From assembly GCA_944323785.1 (NCBI GenBank), contig CALUTU010000005.1, forward strand, positions 39,319-103,318: a stretch of DNA of 64,000 nucleotides. The letters run 5' to 3'. Source of the stretch: an uncultured Bacteroidales bacterium (GTDB lineage: Bacteria > Bacteroidota > Bacteroidia > Bacteroidales > UBA932). The notes beneath the pieces were generated by a model. It was given only the letters and a program-made list of their open reading frames with translations, did not search any database and was not told the DNA's origin. How positions within the stretch are numbered: the first letter of the stretch is position 1; each line of letters opens with the position of its first letter. Below, in pieces: positions 796 through 51,855 of the stretch. The translations under genes were made by a program, and so were the position numbers.

Positions 796-1725
796 ATGGC
801 AAACAAAAGAGACGCACTGGGCAAAGGGCTCGGAGCCCTGATATCCGGCATAGACAGTCTCGGCGTGACCCAGACGGTTCCAGCCGAAGACACTATTGGG
901 AATGATCCCGTCAGGAATCCCGCTTCCATATGTGAGATTCCCGTCGAGAAGATATCCGCCAACCCTTACCAGCCCAGGAGTAATTTTGACGAGGATGCTC
1001 TCGCCGAACTCACTGAGTCCATCAGGCAGCTCGGCATAATCCAGCCTATAACGGTACGCAAAATAGGTCTCCGATATCAGATTATAAGCGGGGAACGTCG
1101 GTTTAAAGCCGCCTCCGCCGCCGGACTGAGCACCATACCTGCATATATAAAGGAGACAGATAATCAGGGCATGCTTGAAATGGCCATCGTTGAGAACATC
1201 CAGAGAGAAGACCTGGATGCGATAGAAGTCGCGCTGAGTTTTCAAAGGCTCATTGACGAATGCAACCTGACACAGGATGCCATGGCCGATAAAGTCGGTA
1301 AGAAAAGGGCAACCGTGGCCAACTACCTCAGACTGCTCAAGCTTCCTGCAGAGATCCAGGTATGCATCAGAGACGGAAAGATATCCATGGGACATGCAAA
1401 GGCCATACTCTCGCTGAATGATCCGGTCGCTCAGCTGAGCCTGTGCGACGACATCATCAAACGCAATCTGTCGGTCAGACAGGCTGAGGCCAAAGCCCAG
1501 AACATGCTGAAGAGAGGTGACAGGAGCAGAGAAGCCGAGGATAAGAAAGCATCATCCGAACTGCCTGACAGCTACTACAGAGTACTGGAGATAGTCGGAA
1601 GGTATTTTGGAAACAATATAAGCATCAAAAGATCGGAGCAGGGTAAAGGCAGTTTCACTATCCAGTTCTCATCGGATGCAGAAGTGGAATCATTTTTGAG
1701 AGCGATTGAGAACATCAACCAATAA
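796..1725 (+). CDS. parB: ParB/Spo0J chromosome-partitioning protein
   Basis: 309-aa ORF with the ParB-box motif GERRFKAA and an HTH region. Adjacent to parA. Confidence 0.93.
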   Translation: MANKRDALGKGLGALISGIDSLGVTQTVPAEDTIGNDPVRNPASICEIPVEKISANPYQPRSNFDEDALAELTESIRQLGIIQPITVRKIGLRYQIISGERRFKAASAAGLSTIPAYIKETDNQGMLEMAIVENIQREDLDAIEVALSFQRLIDECNLTQDAMADKVGKKRATVANYLRLLKLPAEIQVCIRDGKISMGHAKAILSLNDPVAQLSLCDDIIKRNLSVRQAEAKAQNMLKRGDRSREAEDKKASSELPDSYYRVLEIVGRYFGNNISIKRSEQGKGSFTIQFSSDAEVESFLRAIENINQ

Positions 1726-2653
1726 AACGCCTAGAGACGTGCGCAAGACAGTCCTGATAGTACTTATATCACTGCTGCTTCCTTTACAAGCTTCTGCCCA
1801 GTTTATCAACAGTGGCGGAAGCGGGAGCATCCCGGGTTCAGGCATCTCGTCAGATTCATCTTCAAAAGAAGAATCATACACCTTGAAAAGATATTTCAAG
1901 TCTCTTGCTCACAGAGACTCGATGTCTATAGGCTGGGCCTTCGCAGGTTCATTTATTCTGCCCGGAACAGCCCAGATATACAATGAAGATTACTGGAAAC
2001 TGCCTATAATCTACGCCGGTATCGGCGGTATGCTCGGTGGAGGATTCTACTACAACTCTCAGTTCAAGAAGACAGGAAGTGAGTCTGACAAGCTGGCCAG
2101 GAACCTCTTTTTCATAGGCGCAGCCGCCTTCTACTGGGGGCAGCTGCTGGATGGAGCCGCAAGTTATAAATCCTACCGTCCGCATCTGCCGGGAAGGGCC
2201 ACCATATATTCCGCATTGCTTCCAGGACTGGGACAAATATACAACCGGGAATATTGGAAACTGCCGATATATTATGGGGGGCTGGCTGTCGCCGGATACT
2301 GCTGGTACTACAATGACCTACAGTACAAACGTTTCCAACATGATTACAATATGGCCACCCAGCCTGGAGGTAATTACACCGGCAACCTGTCCGTAGACAA
2401 TCTCCAATACTACAGAGACTACTACCGCCGTTACCGGGACTACTCAATAGTAGCGACGGTTCTGATATATATCATACAGATTATTGATGCCGATGTATTC
2501 GCCACTATGAGCGAATTCGATGTCAATCAGAACCTCAGTATGGATATAGAGCCGGCCATCATCGAACCCATCAACTACGATTTCACCACCAACTACACTC
2601 TTGCCATGCCTACCGGCAGCGCAATGGGTGTTAGAATGAATTTCAGATTTTAA
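1706..2653 (+). CDS. Membrane protein with duplicated PGxxQIYN-YWKLPIxY motif (DUF5683-like)
   Basis: 315-aa ORF with a signal peptide and two copies of LPG(T/L)xQIYNxxYWKLPI(I/Y)Y. The position after parB is as I recall for Bacteroidales DUF5683 proteins. Overlaps the parB end by 20 nt. Confidence 0.75.
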   Translation: MRTSTNKTPRDVRKTVLIVLISLLLPLQASAQFINSGGSGSIPGSGISSDSSSKEESYTLKRYFKSLAHRDSMSIGWAFAGSFILPGTAQIYNEDYWKLPIIYAGIGGMLGGGFYYNSQFKKTGSESDKLARNLFFIGAAAFYWGQLLDGAASYKSYRPHLPGRATIYSALLPGLGQIYNREYWKLPIYYGGLAVAGYCWYYNDLQYKRFQHDYNMATQPGGNYTGNLSVDNLQYYRDYYRRYRDYSIVATVLIYIIQIIDADVFATMSEFDVNQNLSMDIEPAIIEPINYDFTTNYTLAMPTGSAMGVRMNFRF

Positions 2654-2656
2654 TTA

Positions 2657-4309
2657 ATGAGACAAACGTTTATACTACTGTTGACAGCAGCTGTTCTCAT
2701 CAGCTTGCCCATCAATGTTTCAGGCAAACCGAAACACGATAAAGAAAAGAAAAAAATAACATTATTTGCATCCCAGGACAGAAAAAGTCTTATTCGGGAA
2801 CGAGACTCTCTTGTCCTGGCAAATGAAGCCCTCATGATGGAACTAGACAGTCTATACAGGAAATACGCTGATCTAGAAGTCTATGAGGAGCTTGCAGAAG
2901 CGGATTCTATCAATATGGGTGCTATGGACATGGACGGGATAGAGTCAATATCGGATACATCTTTCATCTCCAGAGACTCTCTCCTAAGTCTGTGGTACCA
3001 GCAACGCAATCTTAACCTTATGGAGATAGAGCCTTCCGACATAGATACCATAGAGATGGTCTCCGACATACCGGACTCGGTATACATCAGCCGGCTACAA
3101 AAACTTAATCCATATATATCCGTGCCCTACAACCGAATCATACGCAACCACATAGTCTACTACACCCAGAAGATGCCCGAGAAGATGGAAAGGATACTCG
3201 GACTCGCCACCTATTATATCCCCATCTTCGAAGAGATATTTGACCAATACGACATGCCTCTGGAGCTCACCGCCATGGCCGTCATAGAATCGGCACTGAA
3301 TACAAAAGCCGTCTCCAGAGCCAGGGCCAAAGGCATGTGGCAGTTCATGTATTCCACAGCCAAGAGGTATGGCCTGACCATTAATTCCTATGTGGACGAG
3401 AGATTCGACCCTATCGCTTCCGCTCATGCGGCTGCCAGATATCTGCGTGACTCATACCTTATCTTCGGAGACTGGTCTCTGGCCATTGCCTCCTACAACT
3501 GCGGAGCCGGCAACGTCAACAAGGCCATCCGCCGTTCCGGCGGTTCAAAGGACTTCTGGGAAATCTACCCGTACCTTCCCAGGGAGACCAGAGGATATGT
3601 GCCTTCGTTCTTCGCCGCTCTCTATGCGATGAAATACTACAAAGAGCACAATCTCACACCGGAATTCATCCCTATGCCGCCCCATACGGACACCATCAAG
3701 GTCAACAAAATGCTGCATTTCGAACAGATAGCCCACTACACCGGAGCCAGCATCGAGGAGTTGCGCACGCACAATCCGCAGTACCTGCATGACATCATCC
3801 CCGGTACGGAGAAAGAGTATATCCTCCAGTTGCCATACCAGTACACAGGTGCGTTCATTGACCACGAAAAAGAGATATACGCCTACAAGGATTCCGTATA
3901 TTTCAGTCCGGCGGCGATGAAACAGATACAGCAGTCCGCCGAGCCGTCCAAGATTACCCACCGGGTAAAGCGCGGAGAGACACTGAGTCACATCGCTCTC
4001 AGATACGGAGTCACGGTAAAGAATATCCAGAGATGGAACGGCATAGGCACACGCATACGGGAGGGCCAGAGACTGGCCATCTATACCAACGGCAGCGGTC
4101 CGTCCGCCAAATCATCCTCAGGCGGGAAGGTGAGCACGAGCGTATCCAACGGATATGTGATGTACACTGTCCGCTCCGGAGACAATCTCTGGAACATCGC
4201 CAAGAAATTCAGCGGAGTGAGCGTAAGCGACATCCAGCGTCTCAACGGGCTGAGCAAGAACAGCAAGATATATCCCGGCAAGAAGCTCAAAATCAAAAAG
4301 GCCAACTAA
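2657..4309 (+). CDS. Lytic transglycosylase (SLT domain) with two C-terminal LysM domains, MltD-like
   Basis: 550-aa ORF with a signal peptide. SLT catalytic region is ESALNTKAVSRARAKGMWQFM. Two LysM repeats are present (HRVKRGETLSHIALRYGV..., YTVRSGDNLWNIAKKFSGV...). Confidence 0.9.
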   Translation: MRQTFILLLTAAVLISLPINVSGKPKHDKEKKKITLFASQDRKSLIRERDSLVLANEALMMELDSLYRKYADLEVYEELAEADSINMGAMDMDGIESISDTSFISRDSLLSLWYQQRNLNLMEIEPSDIDTIEMVSDIPDSVYISRLQKLNPYISVPYNRIIRNHIVYYTQKMPEKMERILGLATYYIPIFEEIFDQYDMPLELTAMAVIESALNTKAVSRARAKGMWQFMYSTAKRYGLTINSYVDERFDPIASAHAAARYLRDSYLIFGDWSLAIASYNCGAGNVNKAIRRSGGSKDFWEIYPYLPRETRGYVPSFFAALYAMKYYKEHNLTPEFIPMPPHTDTIKVNKMLHFEQIAHYTGASIEELRTHNPQYLHDIIPGTEKEYILQLPYQYTGAFIDHEKEIYAYKDSVYFSPAAMKQIQQSAEPSKITHRVKRGETLSHIALRYGVTVKNIQRWNGIGTRIREGQRLAIYTNGSGPSAKSSSGGKVSTSVSNGYVMYTVRSGDNLWNIAKKFSGVSVSDIQRLNGLSKNSKIYPGKKLKIKKAN

Positions 4310-34564: not shown

Positions 34565-36256
34565 ATGGACAACACACATCAGCGGTCACTTCGGGCACTG
34601 CTCGAGTTCGCCTTTACACGATATGCCGACAAGCCGTTCCTGCATTTCATCGACGGGCCCGGCTACAGCTACGGAGAGTTCCACGCCAAGGTCTATGAGA
34701 CCGCCGGACTGCTGGCCCGCTACGGTATGGGCAGAGGCGACCTCGTGGGGCTGCTCTCGCAGAATATGCCCAACTGGGGCGTAGCGTATTTCGCCACAGC
34801 CGCCTTCGGCATGATTACAGTGCCGATGCTTCCGGATTTTTCCGAGAGCGAGATCAAGCACATACTCAAGCACTCGGAGGCCAGAGCCCTGTTCGTATCC
34901 AGGAAACTGCTGCCGAAAGTCCTGCCGAAAGCCATTGACCGACTGGAGCTGATTATCTGCCTCGACGATTTTTCCATCATCAAGGGAGCTCCGTGCAGTG
35001 AGCCGGCAGAGCTGCCCTCCGAAGCGGACATACAGCCGGACGATCTGGCCGCCATCATCTACACATCAGGCACTACCGGCAGTTCCAAGGGCGTGATGCT
35101 CAGCCACCGCAACCTGTGCGCCAACCTCTGGTCCACCGAGGATGTCCGCCCGAGCTTCGACTGGGACGTGTGGCTGTCCCTGCTGCCCCTGTCCCACACC
35201 CTAGAGTGCAGCATGTGTCTCCTCCTTCCGATGCAGGCCGGAGCCAGCGTCAACTACATCGAAAAGGCACCGACACCGACCATTCTTATGAATGCCCTGG
35301 CACGGGTAAGGCCCACGACCATCCTCTCCGTGCCCCTTATTATAGAAAAGGTATACCGCAGCGCGGTGCTGCCGAAACTCACCGCATCACCTCTGCTCCG
35401 GTTCTTGCACCGCATCCCTCCTTTCAGGAAAATGATGCACCGCAAGGCCGGCCGGATGCTGATGGAAAAATTCGGAGGCCGCATCCGTTTCTTCGGCATC
35501 GGCGGGGCAAGGCTTGACCCCGAGGTGGAACGTTTCCTGCTTGAGGCCCGTTTCCCCTACGCCATAGGCTACGGACTCACCGAGACCTCGCCGCTCATCG
35601 CAGCAGCCACCCCGGACATGGTCCGGCTCGGATCCACCGGCCCGGTAGTCAAAGGCGTGGAGCTGCGTCTGCTCAACAAAGACCCCAGGACAGGCGTAGG
35701 CGAGATAGCCGTCAAGGGAGACAACGTCACACGTGGCTATTTCAAGAACCCCGAGGCCACTTCCGCAGCCTTCACCGAGGACGGCTGGTTCCTGACAAAG
35801 GATCTCGGCAAGCTGGACAAGGACGGCTGGCTCTACATCAAAGGCCGCTCCTCGACTACCATTATCGGCCCGAGCGGAGAGAACATCTATCCCGAAGAAG
35901 TGGAGAGCGTCATCAACAGCCACGATATGGTGTCCGAGTCCCTGGTCACCAACCGCAAGGGCAGGCTTACAGCCTTGGTTCATTTCGATTCCGATAAGCT
36001 CAAGGCCTTTCTCGAGTCCACTGACGAGCTGAAACGCACTGCTCAGGAGAAGCTGGAGAACCTCAAGAAAGAGATTCTGGACTACGTCAACCAGAAAGTC
36101 AGCAAATTCTCCCGCATCAGCGAGATAGACCCTCAGGAGGAGGAGTTCGAGAAGACTGCCACCCACAAGATCAAGCGCTACCTCTACGACGGCTCCAAAT
36201 CCAAAGACTCCAAATCCAAAGACCCCAAATCCAGCAAGCCCTCACACAGCAGGTGA
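34565..36256 (+). CDS. AMP-dependent long-chain acyl-CoA synthetase/ligase
   Basis: 563-aa ORF with the AMP-binding signature IIYTSGTTGSSKGV and GYGLTET. The K/S-rich C-terminal tail and stop codon lie inside the repeat-element tail. Confidence 0.9.
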   Translation: MDNTHQRSLRALLEFAFTRYADKPFLHFIDGPGYSYGEFHAKVYETAGLLARYGMGRGDLVGLLSQNMPNWGVAYFATAAFGMITVPMLPDFSESEIKHILKHSEARALFVSRKLLPKVLPKAIDRLELIICLDDFSIIKGAPCSEPAELPSEADIQPDDLAAIIYTSGTTGSSKGVMLSHRNLCANLWSTEDVRPSFDWDVWLSLLPLSHTLECSMCLLLPMQAGASVNYIEKAPTPTILMNALARVRPTTILSVPLIIEKVYRSAVLPKLTASPLLRFLHRIPPFRKMMHRKAGRMLMEKFGGRIRFFGIGGARLDPEVERFLLEARFPYAIGYGLTETSPLIAAATPDMVRLGSTGPVVKGVELRLLNKDPRTGVGEIAVKGDNVTRGYFKNPEATSAAFTEDGWFLTKDLGKLDKDGWLYIKGRSSTTIIGPSGENIYPEEVESVINSHDMVSESLVTNRKGRLTALVHFDSDKLKAFLESTDELKRTAQEKLENLKKEILDYVNQKVSKFSRISEIDPQEEEFEKTATHKIKRYLYDGSKSKDSKSKDPKSSKPSHSR

Positions 36257-36296
36257 ACCGAAACTCCGCCCAACCGGTATACCAGCACTCACTTTT

Positions 36297-36404
36297 ATGA
36301 AAATTCCAGCAGTCGAAAAGACCAGGCCCTCCCACCGCTTCGCGGCGGGCCCCTCCCTCTAGAGCCGAGGGCGGCTAGTCTTTTCTCGTTGCTGGAATTT
36401 CATA
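36297..36404. repeat. R2 long imperfect palindrome (~108 nt), copy 1
   Basis: ATGAAAATTCCAGCAG...GAAAAGACCAGGCCCTC...GAGGGCGGCTAGTCTTTTC...TGCTGGAATTTCAT. The arms pair over about 35 bp with small bulges. Confidence 0.9.
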
Positions 36405-36457
36405 AGAACACCATACGGAGGAAAGTGTAGTTTCCCCAAAGGCTGGCTTAATAAGAA

Positions 36458-36645
36458 CTTTTACAATGTCCAACACACCGCTCAAATGTATTGTGCTGAT
36501 TATTAAACGCATACATTTTGGCGATTTGCTGGACTGCCCGCTTTTTGCCATAAAACAACCATTTCACCCCAGGTCCAGCAGATGCTCTTTTTCAGAGTGC
36601 CTGTATACTAGGCACTTTCCCAAGCAGGCCCTGCTGGACCTCCCC
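36458..36645. repeat. R3 double-hairpin module, copy 1
   Basis: GTCCAACA...TGCTGGAC and AGGTCCAGCAG...CTGCTGGACCT stems. Nested perfect hairpin AGTGCCT-N7-AGGCACT at 36596-36616. Confidence 0.9.
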
Positions 36646-36661
36646 TGAAGTCTCATGCCAT

Positions 36662-36706
36662 GGGGGAAAGTGAACCGTTTTCGCGGAAAAACCCGGCACT
36701 TTCCCC
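36662..36706. repeat. R1 45-nt hairpin, solitary copy
   Basis: GGGGGAAAGTG-AACCGTTTTCGCGGAAAAACCCGG-CACTTTCCCC. Confidence 0.9.
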
Positions 36707-36749
36707 GCACTCCATTCACCCCCTTTAAGAACCTGACAGCATAGACTCT

Positions 36750-36857
36750 ATGAAAATTCCAGCAGTCGAAAAGACCAGGCCCTCCCACCGCTTCGCGGCG
36801 GGCCCCTCCCTCTAGAGCCGAGGGCGGCTAGTCTTTTCTCGTTGCCGGAATTTCATA
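36750..36857. repeat. R2 long imperfect palindrome, copy 2
   Basis: Same as copy 1 with one arm substitution (TGCCGGAATTTCAT). Confidence 0.9.
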
Positions 36858-36910
36858 AGAACACCATACGGAGGAAAGTGTAGTTTCCCCAAAGGCTGGC
36901 TTAATAAGAA

Positions 36911-37098
36911 CTTTTACAATGTCCAACACACCGCTCAAATGTATTGTGCTGATTATTAAACGCATACATTTTGGCGATTTGCTGGACTGCCCGCTTTTTG
37001 CCATAAAACCGCCATTTCACCCCATGTCCAGCAGATGCTCTTTTTCAGAGTGCCTGTATACTAGGCACTTTCCCAAGTAGGCCCTGCTGGACCTCCCC
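36911..37098. repeat. R3 double-hairpin module, copy 2
   Basis: About 98 percent identical to copy 1 by eye. Confidence 0.9.
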
Positions 37099-37114
37099 TG
37101 AAGTCTCATGCCGC

Positions 37115-37477
37115 GGGGGAAAGTGAACCGTTTTCGCCGAAAAACCCGGCACTTTCCCTGGAGGTGGAAATGCCAAGTGCGGCGAGAGAGGCCTGTGGAG
37201 CCAGTGCCCCGGCCGGCCACGGGGGAAAGTGAACCGTTTTCGCCGAAAAACCCGGCACTTTCCCCGGAGGTGGAAATGCCAAGTGCGGCCAGAGAGGCCT
37301 GTAGAGCCGGTACCCCGGCCGGCCATGGGGGAAAGTGAACCGTTTTCGCCGAAAAACCCGGCACTTTCCCCGGGGGTGGAAATGGCAGGTGCCGCCAGAG
37401 AGGCATGTGGAGCCGGTACCCCTGCGAGCCACGGGGGAAAGTGAACCGTTTTCGCGGAAATTCCCGGCACTTTCCCC
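37115..37477 (+). repeat. 106-bp tandem repeat array (3 full periods, 4 R1 hairpins)
   Basis: R1 hairpins start at 37115, 37221, 37327 and 37433, an exact 106-bp period. The ~61-nt inter-hairpin segments are also about 85-90 percent identical to each other. Confidence 0.95.
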
Positions 37478-37537
37478 GAGGGTCTAGGACAAGGGGAGAA
37501 AAAACGCAAAGGTGGGACGAAATGTTGAATGAAATGA

Positions 37538-37833
37538 AAAGGTAAAAGGGCATGTGACTGGAGGGCTGACGAGGATGATGTGGGACGGAAAGGTAAAAGG
37601 GTATGTGACTGGGGGCTGACGAGGATGATGTGGGACGGAATGGCACAAGGGCGTGTGACTGGAGGGGCTGACGAGGATGATGTGGGACGGAAAGGTAAAA
37701 GGGTATGTGACTGGGGGGCTGACGAGGATGATGTGGGACGGAAAGGTAAAAGGGCGTGTGACTGGAGGGGTTGACGAGGATGATGTGGGACGGAAAGGCA
37801 CAAGGGCGTGTGACTGGAGGGGCTGACGGGACA
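37538..37833 (+). repeat. ~52-bp G-rich, C-poor tandem repeat array (~5.7 units)
   Basis: Unit is AAAGGTAAAAGGGYRTGTGACTGGRGGGCTGACGAGGATGATGTGGGACGG. Units start near 37538, 37589, 37640, 37692, 37744 and 37796. Confidence 0.9.
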
Positions 37834-37849
37834 AGAATGAGACGGGATG

Positions 37850-37899
37850 GGAGGAAAGAGAAGGAGCGCATTCGCCGTCTGTCCGGTCGAATGCGCTCC
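37850..37899 (-). terminator. Rho-independent terminator (end of lipoprotein operon 2)
   Basis: Perfect 12-bp stem GGAGCGCATTCG-N13-CGAATGCGCTCC. On the minus strand it is followed by TTCTCTTTCC. Lies 33 nt after the stop at 37932. Confidence 0.75.
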
Positions 37900-37931
37900 C
37901 TATCAGATTAAACTGGTACTACCCTTATGCT

Positions 37932-39227
37932 CTACTTGGTAACAGTTGACGACATGCTTGTCGGAGCCGCCTTTACCACAGTCATTACTTTACTGTCCTG
38001 CGCAGCGTAACTTGTAGAGGTCTTAGTGAACGTTAAAGTTCCGGCAGGAATATAAGTAGGGTAATCACCGTAATATACACCCACACCGTTATCAAATGAG
38101 AAAATATCTGCAGCCACAACGGTATACTGTACATTGGAACTGCTCATGAGCTCGCGAGAAATGCTCGTCTTGGTATCAGGGTCTATGAGAAATGCGTACT
38201 CAGTACCGCTAAAGATAGTGACAACATCATCTTCCTCATTCCAGCATATAGGTGCACATAGCATATCATTGCCATTTAGGTCCTGAGCTACGGCCATATC
38301 ACCGGTCACGATGCCAAGACACGGCTTTCCATCCTCGCTCTCGATTATGGTAGCCCAAAGAGAATACTCTGACAGAGGAGACAATCCGCTTATCCACACA
38401 TAGTTCTCGTTGGTGGACGGCTGTATGGTAACTGGAATTTCGTCGGCATAGCCAGTTTTGTCAAATTCGAACACTATCTGATCGTTCGAATTGTAGTCAA
38501 CGACAACCCTCGCCGTACATCCTACAGTGTAGGTTCCCAACCACGATCTGAGTTCCTCTACCGGCTCCACGACTTCGTGCTGAACAGTGAACGAGCACTC
38601 TCCAGGAAGTGATTCGCGATATTCGGCTGAGCCTTCTTCAGGCTGGGCGATTACACTCACAGTATGAGTGGTGGCAGTAAGGTCGGAAGTCTGGTATGTG
38701 ACAGACGTCTCCGTGGTAGTCTCCCATTCGCCTGAATCGAGGGAGTAAATGTAAGATGCGGCATGCTCAATGCTGGACCAGCTGACAACAACCCCTCCTT
38801 TACCGTCAGGATTAGCGGTCACTTCCGGAGTCTCCAGTCTTTGAGGCTCTACCTGAGCGGTCACTGTGAAAGTGTATGAGCCGGGTTGCGAGGCAGTGTA
38901 CTGATCAGCGGCATCCAGGGCCGGATTGGCAATGACATAGACCGTATGCTCGCCTTCAGCCAGATCAGAGGTGCTGACGGTTACCGATGTCTGGTCTGTG
39001 GTTCTCGCAGCGTTGCTGTCAATGTTCCAGCTGTAAGTCGCCGCATTGGGGATTTCTGTCCAAGATACCGTAACATTGTCTCCATTGACGGTGGCCGACA
39101 CCTCCGGAGTAGCAAGAGCCACTGCCTCGGCAGGGCCATTCTGTTCCTGGCATGAGAGCGCTACGGCAGCAGCCGCTGACACAGCAAAGAGACGCAGATA
39201 AAAATAGTTCATTTTAAAATATTGCAA
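37932..39227 (-). CDS. Surface lipoprotein with two FN3-like domains + C-terminal domain (operon 2, gene 4)
   Basis: 431-aa ORF with lipobox VALSC followed by QEQ. Two internal repeats are present (TPEVSATVNGDNVTVSWTEIPNAATYSW... and TPEVTANPDGKGGVVVSWSSIEHAASYIY...). Confidence 0.75.
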   Translation of the reverse strand: MQYFKMNYFYLRLFAVSAAAAVALSCQEQNGPAEAVALATPEVSATVNGDNVTVSWTEIPNAATYSWNIDSNAARTTDQTSVTVSTSDLAEGEHTVYVIANPALDAADQYTASQPGSYTFTVTAQVEPQRLETPEVTANPDGKGGVVVSWSSIEHAASYIYSLDSGEWETTTETSVTYQTSDLTATTHTVSVIAQPEEGSAEYRESLPGECSFTVQHEVVEPVEELRSWLGTYTVGCTARVVVDYNSNDQIVFEFDKTGYADEIPVTIQPSTNENYVWISGLSPLSEYSLWATIIESEDGKPCLGIVTGDMAVAQDLNGNDMLCAPICWNEEDDVVTIFSGTEYAFLIDPDTKTSISRELMSSSNVQYTVVAADIFSFDNGVGVYYGDYPTYIPAGTLTFTKTSTSYAAQDSKVMTVVKAAPTSMSSTVTK

Positions 39228-39252: not shown

Positions 39253-40659
39253 TTAGTCCTCGTATGCGTAATTGACAAGGGTGTTGATCGGAATGTTGAC
39301 AGCATTGTCCACAACCGCACCGAAATCCCCGTAGAGGACATTCGCAACGCTACCGGTGTAAGTTCCATTGTAGGTTGTGTAGACTACTACGTGCAGATTG
39401 TCGGTATTCTCAACTGAAGACGGAACGCGTACTTTCAGCTGGGTCACGTAAGTGCCGTTGGCCTCCAGCGAGACATTGTCTCCCATAAGGTTGTCGGTCA
39501 TCTCTATACGAATCACGTTATTGTGGACATAATCCTCGCTGCCTCCCAGCTGGTAGTACACCAGGCCGTCCTCAAGCAGGAAGGCGTGCAGCGCATACAG
39601 ACCCGCCTCCTTCGAGGCTATGCTGATGTCCGCATAGACAGTGTCATTCTCCAATCTGGTCACTCCGCCTATAACGGTATTGGAAGGCAACTCACGGACA
39701 GCCTCCTCGGCCAATCCGCTAAACTCATCAGTCATAATGGTCGGATTGGTGTTGTTGGCTATTTCTCCGTAATAGTTGACAAATCCCCTCGGATAGCTGG
39801 CTACTCCAAACATGGCAATGAAGGCATTGCAGTTAGAGTACGCGAGGCTTGTATTCCCGTTGAGGGCGAAAGTGTGCATATTCATGGGAATGATATGATC
39901 GGCCACATTTCTCTCAGCTTCCTCAAGAGCCTGGTTCATAGTAGGACAGTTCACACACCCCGTACTTGTGAAACGGATAGCAAGGGAGCGTCTCACGAAA
40001 GTGCGGCTGTAGTCAGCGACAAGCGAGCCTATCTGCTCCACGGTAATGGTCGCGGTAGTCACGCCGTCCTCGCCCGTAAGGGTGATGTGGCCTTCTCTGA
40101 TCTCGCCGTCATTGCCCTGTATGGACAGATTGACTACGGATGTCATGTACTTGGAGTAAGTATGGTTGTCCTCCAGAAGCGTGGAGTCATACTGGATACC
40201 GGTAACCGTCAGCCAGTCCACGTCCGGTACGGCCTCGTACTTCACATTTCCCTCCACGGGGAAGGCAAAAGTCTGCTCCGTAGATGTTACGGTATAGCTG
40301 TCAGGGGATATGCTAAAGCCGGGGGTACCGTCCTGGAACACGTAGTACAGGGTCTCGGTGCCGTTGACTGTCACGGCGAAATTTCCGGCTCTTTCCTTTA
40401 GTCCGGAATTTGTTTCCAGAATGGAGATAGTCAGATTGGCCGTCCCCGCGCTGCCTCTCATCGGTGTCACTACAAACCATGACGCCCGGTTCTCCAGAGT
40501 CCAGTCGGAGTCAAACTCGAGCGAGGTCTGGACTGTTGTCACCTCGTTCGGAACTGAAATGGAATTGCCTATGATGGCATCAGGCCCGTCCTCTCCCGGT
40601 TTGCAGGAGAGGATGAAAGCCATACCAAGAACTATAAATAATATTTTTGAGAATTTCAT
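39253..40659 (-). CDS. Lipoprotein: BACON-like domains + Omp28-related thioredoxin-fold domain with CxxC (operon 2, gene 3)
   Basis: 468-aa ORF with lipobox FILSC. BACON-like segment ASWFVVTPMRGSAGTANLTISI. RFTSTGCVNCP resembles the FTxxxCxxCP motif of Omp28-related proteins, from memory. Confidence 0.7.
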   Translation of the reverse strand: MKFSKILFIVLGMAFILSCKPGEDGPDAIIGNSISVPNEVTTVQTSLEFDSDWTLENRASWFVVTPMRGSAGTANLTISILETNSGLKERAGNFAVTVNGTETLYYVFQDGTPGFSISPDSYTVTSTEQTFAFPVEGNVKYEAVPDVDWLTVTGIQYDSTLLEDNHTYSKYMTSVVNLSIQGNDGEIREGHITLTGEDGVTTATITVEQIGSLVADYSRTFVRRSLAIRFTSTGCVNCPTMNQALEEAERNVADHIIPMNMHTFALNGNTSLAYSNCNAFIAMFGVASYPRGFVNYYGEIANNTNPTIMTDEFSGLAEEAVRELPSNTVIGGVTRLENDTVYADISIASKEAGLYALHAFLLEDGLVYYQLGGSEDYVHNNVIRIEMTDNLMGDNVSLEANGTYVTQLKVRVPSSVENTDNLHVVVYTTYNGTYTGSVANVLYGDFGAVVDNAVNIPINTLVNYAYED

Positions 40660-51442: not shown

Positions 51443-51508
51443 CCCCCTCCACCCTCCTCACATCCCCTACCTCCCCCCACAGAAAGACTCACAGTCTCCA
51501 CCCCCGGT

Positions 51509-51553
51509 GGGGAAAGTGCCGGGAATTTCCGCGAAAACGGTGCACTTTCCCCC
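51509..51553. repeat. R1 45-nt hairpin, inverted copy
   Basis: GGGGAAAGTGCCGGGAATTTCCGCGAAAACGGTGCACTTTCCCCC. This is the reverse complement of the 37433 copy with 1 mismatch. Confidence 0.9.
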
Positions 51554-51564
51554 GTGTGGTGAAA

Positions 51565-51670
51565 ATGAAAATCCGGCAACGAGAAAAGACTAGCCGCCCT
51601 CGGCTCTAGAGGGAGGGGCCCGCCGCAAAGCGGTGGGAGGGCCTGGTCTTTTCGACTGCTGGATTTTCAT
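51565..51670. repeat. R2 long imperfect palindrome, inverted copy 3
   Basis: Reverse complement of the 36297-36404 family with a few substitutions. It is followed (51671-51722) by the inverted 'tail' homologous to 36247-36296. Confidence 0.9.
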
Positions 51671-51855
51671 TAAAATGGGCGCAGGTGTACCGGTGTGGCT
51701 GGATTTCGGTTCACCTGCGGTGTGCCTGTGGCGTGTGTTAATTCCAGACAGGGATAGGGCGTGTCCAGGGATCAGGAGGTTACGCTGCCAGTAGGCATAG
51801 TGTATGTACACGGCAGCAGATAAGAGGGCAGATACGCCTGAGCCGGAAGACCTGA

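Follow-up and report, generated by a model that had tools for sequence, protein, structure and literature searches.

A head-to-tail array of REP-like hairpins in an uncultured Bacteroidales genome, one locus of a mosaic repeat family probably tied to a RAYT-like transposase

A 64,000-nucleotide stretch of an uncultured Bacteroidales bacterium (positions 39,319 to 103,318 of contig CALUTU010000005.1, assembly GCA_944323785.1; hereafter, the window) carries an array in which four copies of a 45-nt hairpin, H, alternate with three 61-nt linkers, S, at a period of 106 bp. We conclude that this array is in all likelihood a non-coding, head-to-tail cluster of hairpins resembling repetitive extragenic palindromes (REPs) and one locus of a genus-wide mosaic family comparable to the bacterial interspersed mosaic elements (BIMEs), with H as the cognate hairpin of one clade of HUH/Y1 enzymes similar to REP-associated tyrosine transposases (RAYTs). 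In relatives, the same H-S arrays directly flank the gene of that RAYT clade, sister RAYT clades carry different hairpin families, and the bricks were reshuffled and changed in copy number between species at orthologous sites. H, S and the modules beside them are bricks from which this intergenic family is assembled in Candidatus Coprenecus, an uncultured genus of Bacteroidales.

The hairpin consists of two arms around 24 nt (GGGGGAAAGTG-24 nt-CACTTTCCCC), and its copies start at positions 37115, 37221, 37327 and 37433 with 0–3 mismatches, exactly where the initial annotation of this DNA had placed them; none would be expected by chance (100 shuffles). Folded as single-stranded DNA, H reaches −13.8 kcal/mol (z = −3.4, none of 200 shuffles as good), with a perfect stem of 10–11 bp around the 24-nt loop, and the linker S folds no better than its shuffles (z = −1.1). 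The 5′ flank of H reads ..C(A/G)CGG|GGGAAAGTG, of which only ..CGG is present at array edges. The annotation had described an exact 106-bp tandem: the period is indeed exact, while the unit sequences are not, with copies 8–10% apart. The four-copy array also stands as described, but not in isolation, as a fifth H lies at 36662–36706, an inverted sixth at 51509–51553, and others on contigs C1, C7 and C21. The linkers are 90–92% alike in the window and 85–100% alike within and between genomes, and are thus not the unique spacers of a CRISPR array, in agreement with the annotation.

The association of H with a transposase was evident in the long-read chromosome OZ006987.1, in which H arrays of 8 and 4 hairpins enclose a 288-aa gene. 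The order there (two contiguous loci) is SpoIIE - A - (H-S)7-H - 288-aa gene - IS1634-family transposase - (H-S)3-H - Metallophos, where A is a dispersed module described below. The 90%-identity cluster of the 288-aa protein has 89 members, and in six ENA scaffolds a cluster member lies between direct H arrays, with 4–6 hairpins upstream and 1–9 downstream at the 106-bp period. Homologues at 70–73% identity in other assemblies are flanked by same-arm hairpins (one set has 6–7 hairpins at a 106–107-bp period), and a 69% homologue in G014, a genome of the same genus, has one same-arm hairpin on each side, in inverted orientation. Overall, H flanks the gene of this RAYT clade in OZ006987.1, in G014 and in 17 further metagenome scaffolds or contigs (L072–L082 and L109–L114). 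H-S arrays of the window's type always run head to tail, and hairpins inverted relative to the upstream ones were confined to the downstream side of some RAYT genes (G014, P0004 and P0007). On scaffolds L073–L076, downstream of a 72%-identical RAYT, the arms are the same and the period is 107 bp, and the linker (CTATGGTCCACACACTACAAGG...) is hard to align with S; it happens to carry a 24-codon ATG...TGA frame.

A profile of 13 paralogues of the 288-aa protein had a single match in the PDB, 4ER8, the E. coli TnpA-REP, with the HUH motif tHvH aligned to HMH and the tyrosine motif YvlrNPvhH aligned to YIYINPVKH. Across 28 homologues, HVH and YVMRNPWHH are invariant or nearly so. An AlphaFold model based on the 28 homologues (mean pLDDT 73, ~89 over residues 1–110) retrieved 4ER8_A as the top Foldseek match (E = 1.1e-6, TM-score 0.70 on the target), followed by the IS200, IS608 and ISDra2 transposases; a phmmer search of the 288-aa protein against the PDB gave spurious matches only. 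The NCBIfam model REP_Tyr_transpos matches 12 of the 13 paralogues.

RAYT-like paralogues are present in 22 of 27 genus genomes, with up to six per genome, and fall into at least eight clades, each with a distinct flanking hairpin family. These families are GAGAGTGTACC.. in the 63% clade, GAAGGAGT.. or GAAGGTGCCG.. at 48–52%, CCACAACGGCAG.. at 39%, and AAGGATAGGGG.. or AAAATGTTAGAAGG.. at 32–34%. The window's own genome encodes a paralogue 63% identical to the H-clade protein on contig C13 (1737–2735, within a locus at 1588–3105), whose hairpins (GAGAGTGTACC...GGTACACTCTC), two upstream and four downstream, are spaced 106, 94 and 106 bp, with some linkers inverted; no obvious hairpins flank a remote paralogue on contig C8. 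The pattern of a RAYT gene flanked by its cognate hairpins, the REPtron, has been described for RAYTs (PMC6006769, PMC3333891), and the direct H flanks of the RAYT gene together with the paralogue-specific hairpin families indicate a REPtron/BIME-like system.

The window's assembly is a 1.97-Mb draft of 36 contigs (53% G+C, 87% complete). The array is hosted by a 1.7-kb gene-free region (36257–37931) with convergent genes on both sides, where it is the middle one of three adjoining repeat arrays that form a 1.5-kb block according to Tandem Repeats Finder (TRF). The features of this region, and of a second site in the window, are as follows.

34565–36256, plus strand: gene for an AMP-binding enzyme, left flank of the gene-free region
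36296–37158: 453-bp array, 1.9 copies (TRF)
36296–36406, plus strand: first copy of module A, a dispersed brick and ~110-nt imperfect palindrome, ATGAAAATTCCAGCAG...TGCTGGAATTTCAT (BLAST module map)
36407–36661, plus strand: first copy of module B, H-arm-like inverted repeats ACGGAGGAAAGTG ... GGCACTTTCCC with a ~190-nt insert, then an S-like tail ending GCCATG
36662–36706, plus strand: hairpin H0, the fifth H copy, 1 mismatch, closing the first 453-bp unit
36707–36748, plus strand: linker X (GCACTCCATTCACCCC...), from the module map; the order H-X-A recurs at other loci
36749–37112, plus strand: second copy of A+B, a 453-bp tandem duplication, 98% identical
37110–37478: 106-bp array, 3.5 copies (TRF, 92% matches, no indels)
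37115–37159, plus strand: hairpin H1 (H pattern)
37160–37220, plus strand: linker S1, 61 nt, with the first of the 20-codon micro open reading frames (micro-ORFs) discussed below (sequence)
37221–37265, plus strand: hairpin H2 (H pattern, folding)
37266–37326, plus strand: linker S2 (sequence, folding)
37327–37371, plus strand: hairpin H3 (H pattern)
37372–37432, plus strand: linker S3 (sequence)
37433–37477, plus strand: hairpin H4, terminal, with the loop variant GGAAATTCCC (H pattern, folding)
37478–37537, plus strand: linker Y, joining the H array to the 52-bp array and kept in three related species at the orthologous locus
37538–37828, plus strand: array T, G-rich 52-bp unit, 5.7 copies (TRF, module map)
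37932–39227, minus strand: gene for a 431-aa protein of unknown function, right flank of the gene-free region
51509–51553, minus strand: single inverted H, the sixth, adjoining an inverted module A (~51565–51670) in the Metallophos/SpoIIE intergenic region (51443–51855)

Because H-arm-like inverted repeats bound module B around its ~190-nt interior, the region can be read as A-[H*-S']-H-X-A-[H*-S']-H-S-H-S-H-S-H-Y-T5. When the two ends of module B were aligned locally to H+S, the scores were reached by 0 of 300 and 3 of 300 shuffles, respectively.

Scanned for the exact pattern, 185,579 species genomes yielded H in seven metagenome-assembled genomes (MAGs) only, all from uncultured Bacteroidales, including Candidatus Coprenecus pullicola, "uncultured Alistipes sp. 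UMGS654", two BRZ bins and the long-read chromosome OZ006987.1. More distant variants of H were among the scan matches in Candidatus Merdivivens and UBA3382. The window's genome has 8–10 copies, a count to be read in the light of draft assemblies undercounting repeats, and five relatives have 26, 39, 19, 10 and 14 copies with exact arms (none for a control pattern). H was absent from the viral contigs searched, and a search of a plasmid collection returned only a 34-nt exact identity between module A and Azospirillum replicons. Of 24 genomes of the same genus, 21 contain module A, with core identities of up to 100%; its core (36308–36393; 65–86 nt) shows 94–100% identity in many species of the genus, well in excess of the genome-wide value.

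Mapping by BLAST placed modules A, B, H, S, X, Y and T in various combinations at more than 30 intergenic loci of five species, with the orders A-B-(H-S)n-H-Y-Tn, H-X-A-B-H, A-(H-S)n-H, (H-S)n-H alone and A-H. Every mapped cluster falls between long open reading frames (ORFs), in convergent and tandem contexts and in both orientations relative to the flanking genes, and the ORFs that overlap them are stop-poor read-throughs without Pfam matches. Successive hairpins are spaced 106 bp (32 cases), 107 bp (10), 105 bp (4), 84–85 bp (6) or 65 bp (1), and arrays hold 1 to 6 hairpins in the loci measured and 8–9 in the long-read genome and ENA scaffolds. On contig C21 of the window's genome (7667–7812), two hairpins with the same arms and another loop, AACCGTTTTCCGGCTTTTTCGGTA, lie 106 bp apart with an S-like linker; this loop sub-variant is also found in G022 and G018.

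The comparison of orthologous sites revealed both brick exchange and changes in copy number. In the intergenic region between genes for 191-aa and 167-aa proteins, two species have H-X-A-B-H and a third has (H-S)4-H, with identical outer flanks. The cluster at the window's locus is shared by four species (the window's genome, G042, G022 and G008), with 4 hairpins in the window, 4 in G008, 5 in G042 and a minimum of 4 in G022, whose contig ends there; the G018 contig ends at the gene, and 18 other genus species examined have neither the cluster nor synteny at the AMP-binding locus. The T array at this locus has 5.7 units in the window, 7.7 in G008 (TRF) and one mapped in the examined part of G042, and on a further G022 contig an H array is likewise followed by T and linker Y. 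At the SpoIIE/Metallophos site, OZ006987.1 and four ENA scaffolds carry the RAYT gene between two direct H arrays, and the window has the single inverted H with module A; this solo-hairpin state is what either a deletion between the flanking arrays or an assembly shortcut would leave.

By analogy with the chemistry of TnpA-REP and IS608-type enzymes, the transposase would bind folded H on single-stranded DNA, cut at a fixed offset and rejoin the strands, and cleavage may proceed via a 5′-phosphotyrosine intermediate followed by strand transfer. Cuts at two neighbouring identical hairpins, with rejoining, would lead to the gain or loss of exactly one 106-nt unit, while cuts at hairpins enclosing another brick would swap that brick; RecA-type homologous recombination between copies probably contributes too. 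Among the roles that the initial annotation had offered for the array, protein-binding hairpins come closest to the evidence, given that H is the cognate hairpin of a RAYT-like transposase, with the binding itself proposed by analogy.

Several observations weigh against this interpretation. Although the 288-aa protein matches the whole REP_Tyr_transpos profile (NF047646; E = 2.8e-10), its 40.3 bits are below the curated cut-off of 80, and its 21.6 bits against Pfam Y1_Tnp (PF01797) are under the 23-bit cut-off, so it is a divergent relative of the RAYT family rather than a threshold-passing member. The foot of H has no GT[AG]G guide (neither GTAG nor GTGG on the 5′ side), the arrays are direct and lack the inverted-doublet unit of BIMEs, the copies counted are tens and not hundreds, at the low end for REPs and perhaps undercounted in draft assemblies, and no transposition event with precise ends was caught. 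In view of these missing REP features and the sub-threshold protein scores, we regard the system as one that works like REP/BIME-RAYT, a divergent variant and not a canonical member. Covariation speaks neither for nor against the fold of H, as the hairpin arms were invariant in a consensus folding of 39 units, which paired each 3′ arm with the 5′ arm of the next unit, an equivalent alternative in a tandem array.

Two further points of this kind concern the assemblies. The window's assembly contains no H-clade RAYT, only the C13 and remote C8 paralogues, and the same gene is likewise missing from four other short-read H-bearing MAGs. Its drop-out from short-read assemblies is plausible, because 84 of the 108 index blocks with a near-identical member (P0038) have it on contigs shorter than 2 kb, and one 1093-bp contig starts and stops inside H. 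The three units of the window match their nearest counterparts in the long-read genome in reversed order, and the hairpin loops of these three units are identical and those in the long-read genome differ, which indicates that unit order, copy number and uniformity may partly reflect short-read assembly. Finally, among 42 distinct H+S units gathered by profile search from the window and five related species, only 11 are most closely related to a unit of their own array, and the majority match orthologous units of sister species; together with the 8–10% divergence between units, this suggests that the arrays are old and now slow to change. Current activity of the system is probably low or absent.

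The closest known counterpart is the E. coli REP/BIME-2 system with TnpA-REP, which likewise comprises short extragenic hairpins in mosaics with conserved linker motifs, tandem numbers that vary by locus and strain, and a Y1/HUH gene between cognate hairpins (the REPtron), and whose transposase structure, 4ER8, is the best structural match to the protein described here. At 45 nt, H is within the size of REP units (about 20–65 nt). The tandem copies of BIME-2 are on record (PMC3333891), and Ton-Hoang et al. proposed that strand transfer by TnpA-REP assembles them (PMC3333891). However, E. coli BIME hairpins alternate in inverted orientation and have a GTAG guide at the foot, whereas the hairpins here are direct and have none; H also differs in its perfect 10–11-bp stem, 24-nt loop and fixed 105–107-bp period, in its copy number (about 10–40 versus about 600 in E. 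coli) and in a protein of 288–317 aa with an extra C-terminal half of ~150 aa. The REPIN-RAYT system of Pseudomonas (Bertels and Rainey) is similar in having several RAYT paralogues per genome with their own repeat families, largely vertical inheritance and RAYT genes flanked by their repeats; a REPIN is an inverted REP doublet, in contrast to the single hairpin and 61-nt linker arranged head to tail and the far smaller populations found here.

Within the same phylum, Quentin et al. (2018, PMC6006769) recorded Bacteroidetes Y1 genes with atypical secondary structures at their flanks, and the TnpA-Y1 subclass 2.6 (Bertels group 5) has Y1 genes with non-canonical flanking hairpins that recur in the genome (PMC6006769). 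Compared by motifs and length, the published subclass (NH[LIV]H, WQ and YIH[QN]NP, mean 179 aa; PMC6006769) differs from the proteins here, which have S[TN]H[VAY]H and Y[VI]xRNPxHH and 288–330 aa. The IS200/IS605 elements (IS608, ISDra2) share the catalytic fold and have subterminal hairpins recognised on single-stranded DNA, a mode of recognition that may apply to H by analogy; unlike them, the gene here is not multicopy with its ends, and the hairpins have spread without the gene. The BOX elements of Streptococcus pneumoniae have a modular A-B(n)-C structure in which a 45-nt unit is repeated a variable number of times. They are not known to be related to H in sequence, and no transposase is known for BOX.

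The regular spacing allows for a more specific, and rather doubtful, proposal, i.e., that selection acts on the 105–107-bp period itself, which spans about ten helical turns, and that the arrays are a distinct phased head-to-tail class of REPs. The period is kept in every H sub-family, including those with strongly diverged loops and linkers, and in arrays of the hairpins of other RAYT paralogues. In such a class, the 106-nt unit would be the single-stranded product excised and re-inserted by the transposase, so that arrays would grow unit by unit beside an existing hairpin, or the array would be a scaffold retained by the host to place hairpin-binding proteins on one face of the DNA. The period could reflect either a constraint (helical turns or a fixed size of the excised unit) or plain inheritance.

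It is unlikely that the array is a plain minisatellite, shaped by slippage and unequal recombination only, with the proximity to a transposase elsewhere being incidental. The strict period, the variable number of hairpins at the orthologous locus (4 in the window and G008, 5 in G042, at least 4 in G022), the age and mostly vertical inheritance of the units, and the lack of the clade's RAYT in the window's assembly would all fit this explanation; yet slippage does not account for the spread of H or H-S to 10–39 unlinked intergenic sites in each genome, nor for bricks being swapped while the outer hairpins stay identical, and every examined member of the RAYT clade is flanked by H while other clades are flanked by other hairpins. 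The purely structural satellite considered by the initial annotation similarly leaves out the dispersal and the link to the transposase.

That the array serves mainly at the RNA level, acting in the 3′ untranslated regions of its two convergent neighbours to terminate transcription, to stabilise mRNA or as a small RNA, is very unlikely, even though it is downstream of both genes, the hairpin is stable and E. coli REPs have such secondary roles (PMC3333891). A scan of 35500–38500 against Rfam returned no match at E ≤ 1, there is no informative covariation, and the arrays occur in either orientation and in both tandem and convergent gene contexts. The terminator hairpins suggested by the annotation did not hold up, as there is no T-run after the stem and terminator-like sites were not above chance (4 versus 3.1 expected), nor was a promoter scan.

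The initial annotation had also raised the possibility of repeated small peptides, with each unit encoding a translated 20-residue peptide from an SD-like (Shine-Dalgarno-like) GGAGGT-N4-ATG start to a stop in the next hairpin. The elements that it listed are all present in the window, i.e., a linker start of GG(A/G)GGTGGAAATG, a 20-codon frame in each of the three units and a TGA inside the next arm, GTGAAC. Moreover, the frame is open in 41 of the 42 units and unbroken by indels, the raw synonymous-to-nonsynonymous ratio is slightly higher in it (0.60 versus 0.48 and 0.46 in other frames), and an ATG...TGA frame occurs in an unrelated linker type as well. Nevertheless, translation of these frames is extremely unlikely. 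The ATG is not preserved across homologous arrays, an outcome that the initial annotation had itself named as refuting the idea: the column reads ATG in 24 of the 42 units, ACG in 13, ACT in three, and ATT and GTG in one each, and only 20 units have an intact "ATG plus 20 codons". Each of the six frames of S is stop-free in 35–42 of the units, which makes an open frame uninformative. About half of the substitutions are synonymous among the three window copies, as reported, and this was not borne out in the larger sample, where the Nei-Gojobori pN/pS is 0.68 in the proposed frame, the same 0.68 in one antisense frame and 0.79–0.94 in the remaining four. The number of hairpins per array ranges freely from 1 to 9 among relatives, and the arrays lie in both orientations relative to the flanking genes.

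The proposed translation signal fared no better. SD-like 5-mers were found at −20 to −4 of 4.7% of 1000 long ORFs, a rate within the range of three control windows further upstream (3.6–5.0%), so there is no sign of Shine-Dalgarno use in this genome; the absence of such use is established for Bacteroidota. The micro-ORF motif GGAGGTGGAAAYG is kept at array ends adjoining unique DNA with no ORF following, and terminal hairpins that abut unique DNA usually retain the first 9–17 nt of S (GGRGGTGGAAAYG) with no frame behind. The "SD + ATG" GGRGGTGGAAAYG thus appears to be a conserved 3′ extension of the hairpin module, and the TGA stop is probably part of the invariant arm GTGAAC, whose sequence forces it. 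As conserved genes the 20-codon micro-ORFs were rejected, with the start not conserved, purifying selection not specific to the frame and no translation signal detected.

The idea that H is a collapsed miniature inverted-repeat transposable element, its arms (GGGGAAAGTG) being the terminal inverted repeats of a DDE transposon with a deleted interior, draws on arms that could pass for terminal repeats, on the arm-like inverted repeats around the ~190-nt interior of module B and on the IS1634-family transposase beside one array, but is hardly credible, as no DDE transposase bounded by H arms was found, the IS1634 copy breaks up a REPtron that six other scaffolds carry intact, target-site duplications are not visible at H borders, and the gene consistently located between the hairpins is a Y1/HUH enzyme.

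Some other features of the locus were inspected. Two overlapping minus-strand ORFs of 284 and 252 aa (37017–37871) were rejected as genes, having no Pfam match and representing stop-poor repeat artefacts; they hold no conservable frame, because the 106- and 52-bp units are not multiples of 3 and copy numbers vary between species. The GC skew across the window has no origin- or terminus-like switch at the locus. The 3′ end of the AMP-binding gene (36193–36256) contains a 15-bp repeat, CTCCAAATCCAAAGA, in 2.7 copies, which gives a Ser/Lys-rich tail; in a tblastn search with this protein, the last ~20 residues align in G042 only, and the other genus species examined stop near residue 541–543.

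The analysis removes a false lead, in that three tidy "SD + ATG + 20 codons + stop" units arise from a repeat as a by-product. The system also offers a plausible reason why short-read metagenome contigs break at H sites and why the RAYT gene is missing from MAGs. More broadly, it shows that an uncultured genus of gut Bacteroidales harbours a rich REP/RAYT-type system, with at least eight clades of transposases that each have a hairpin family of their own, and unusual direct phased tandems. To our knowledge, nearly all that has been worked out of REP/RAYT biology comes from Proteobacteria. The Bacteroidales version, in which the protein is larger, the GTAG guide is missing and the arrays keep strictly to 106 bp, provides a contrasting case for how such transposases choose their substrates and how the repeats are amplified.

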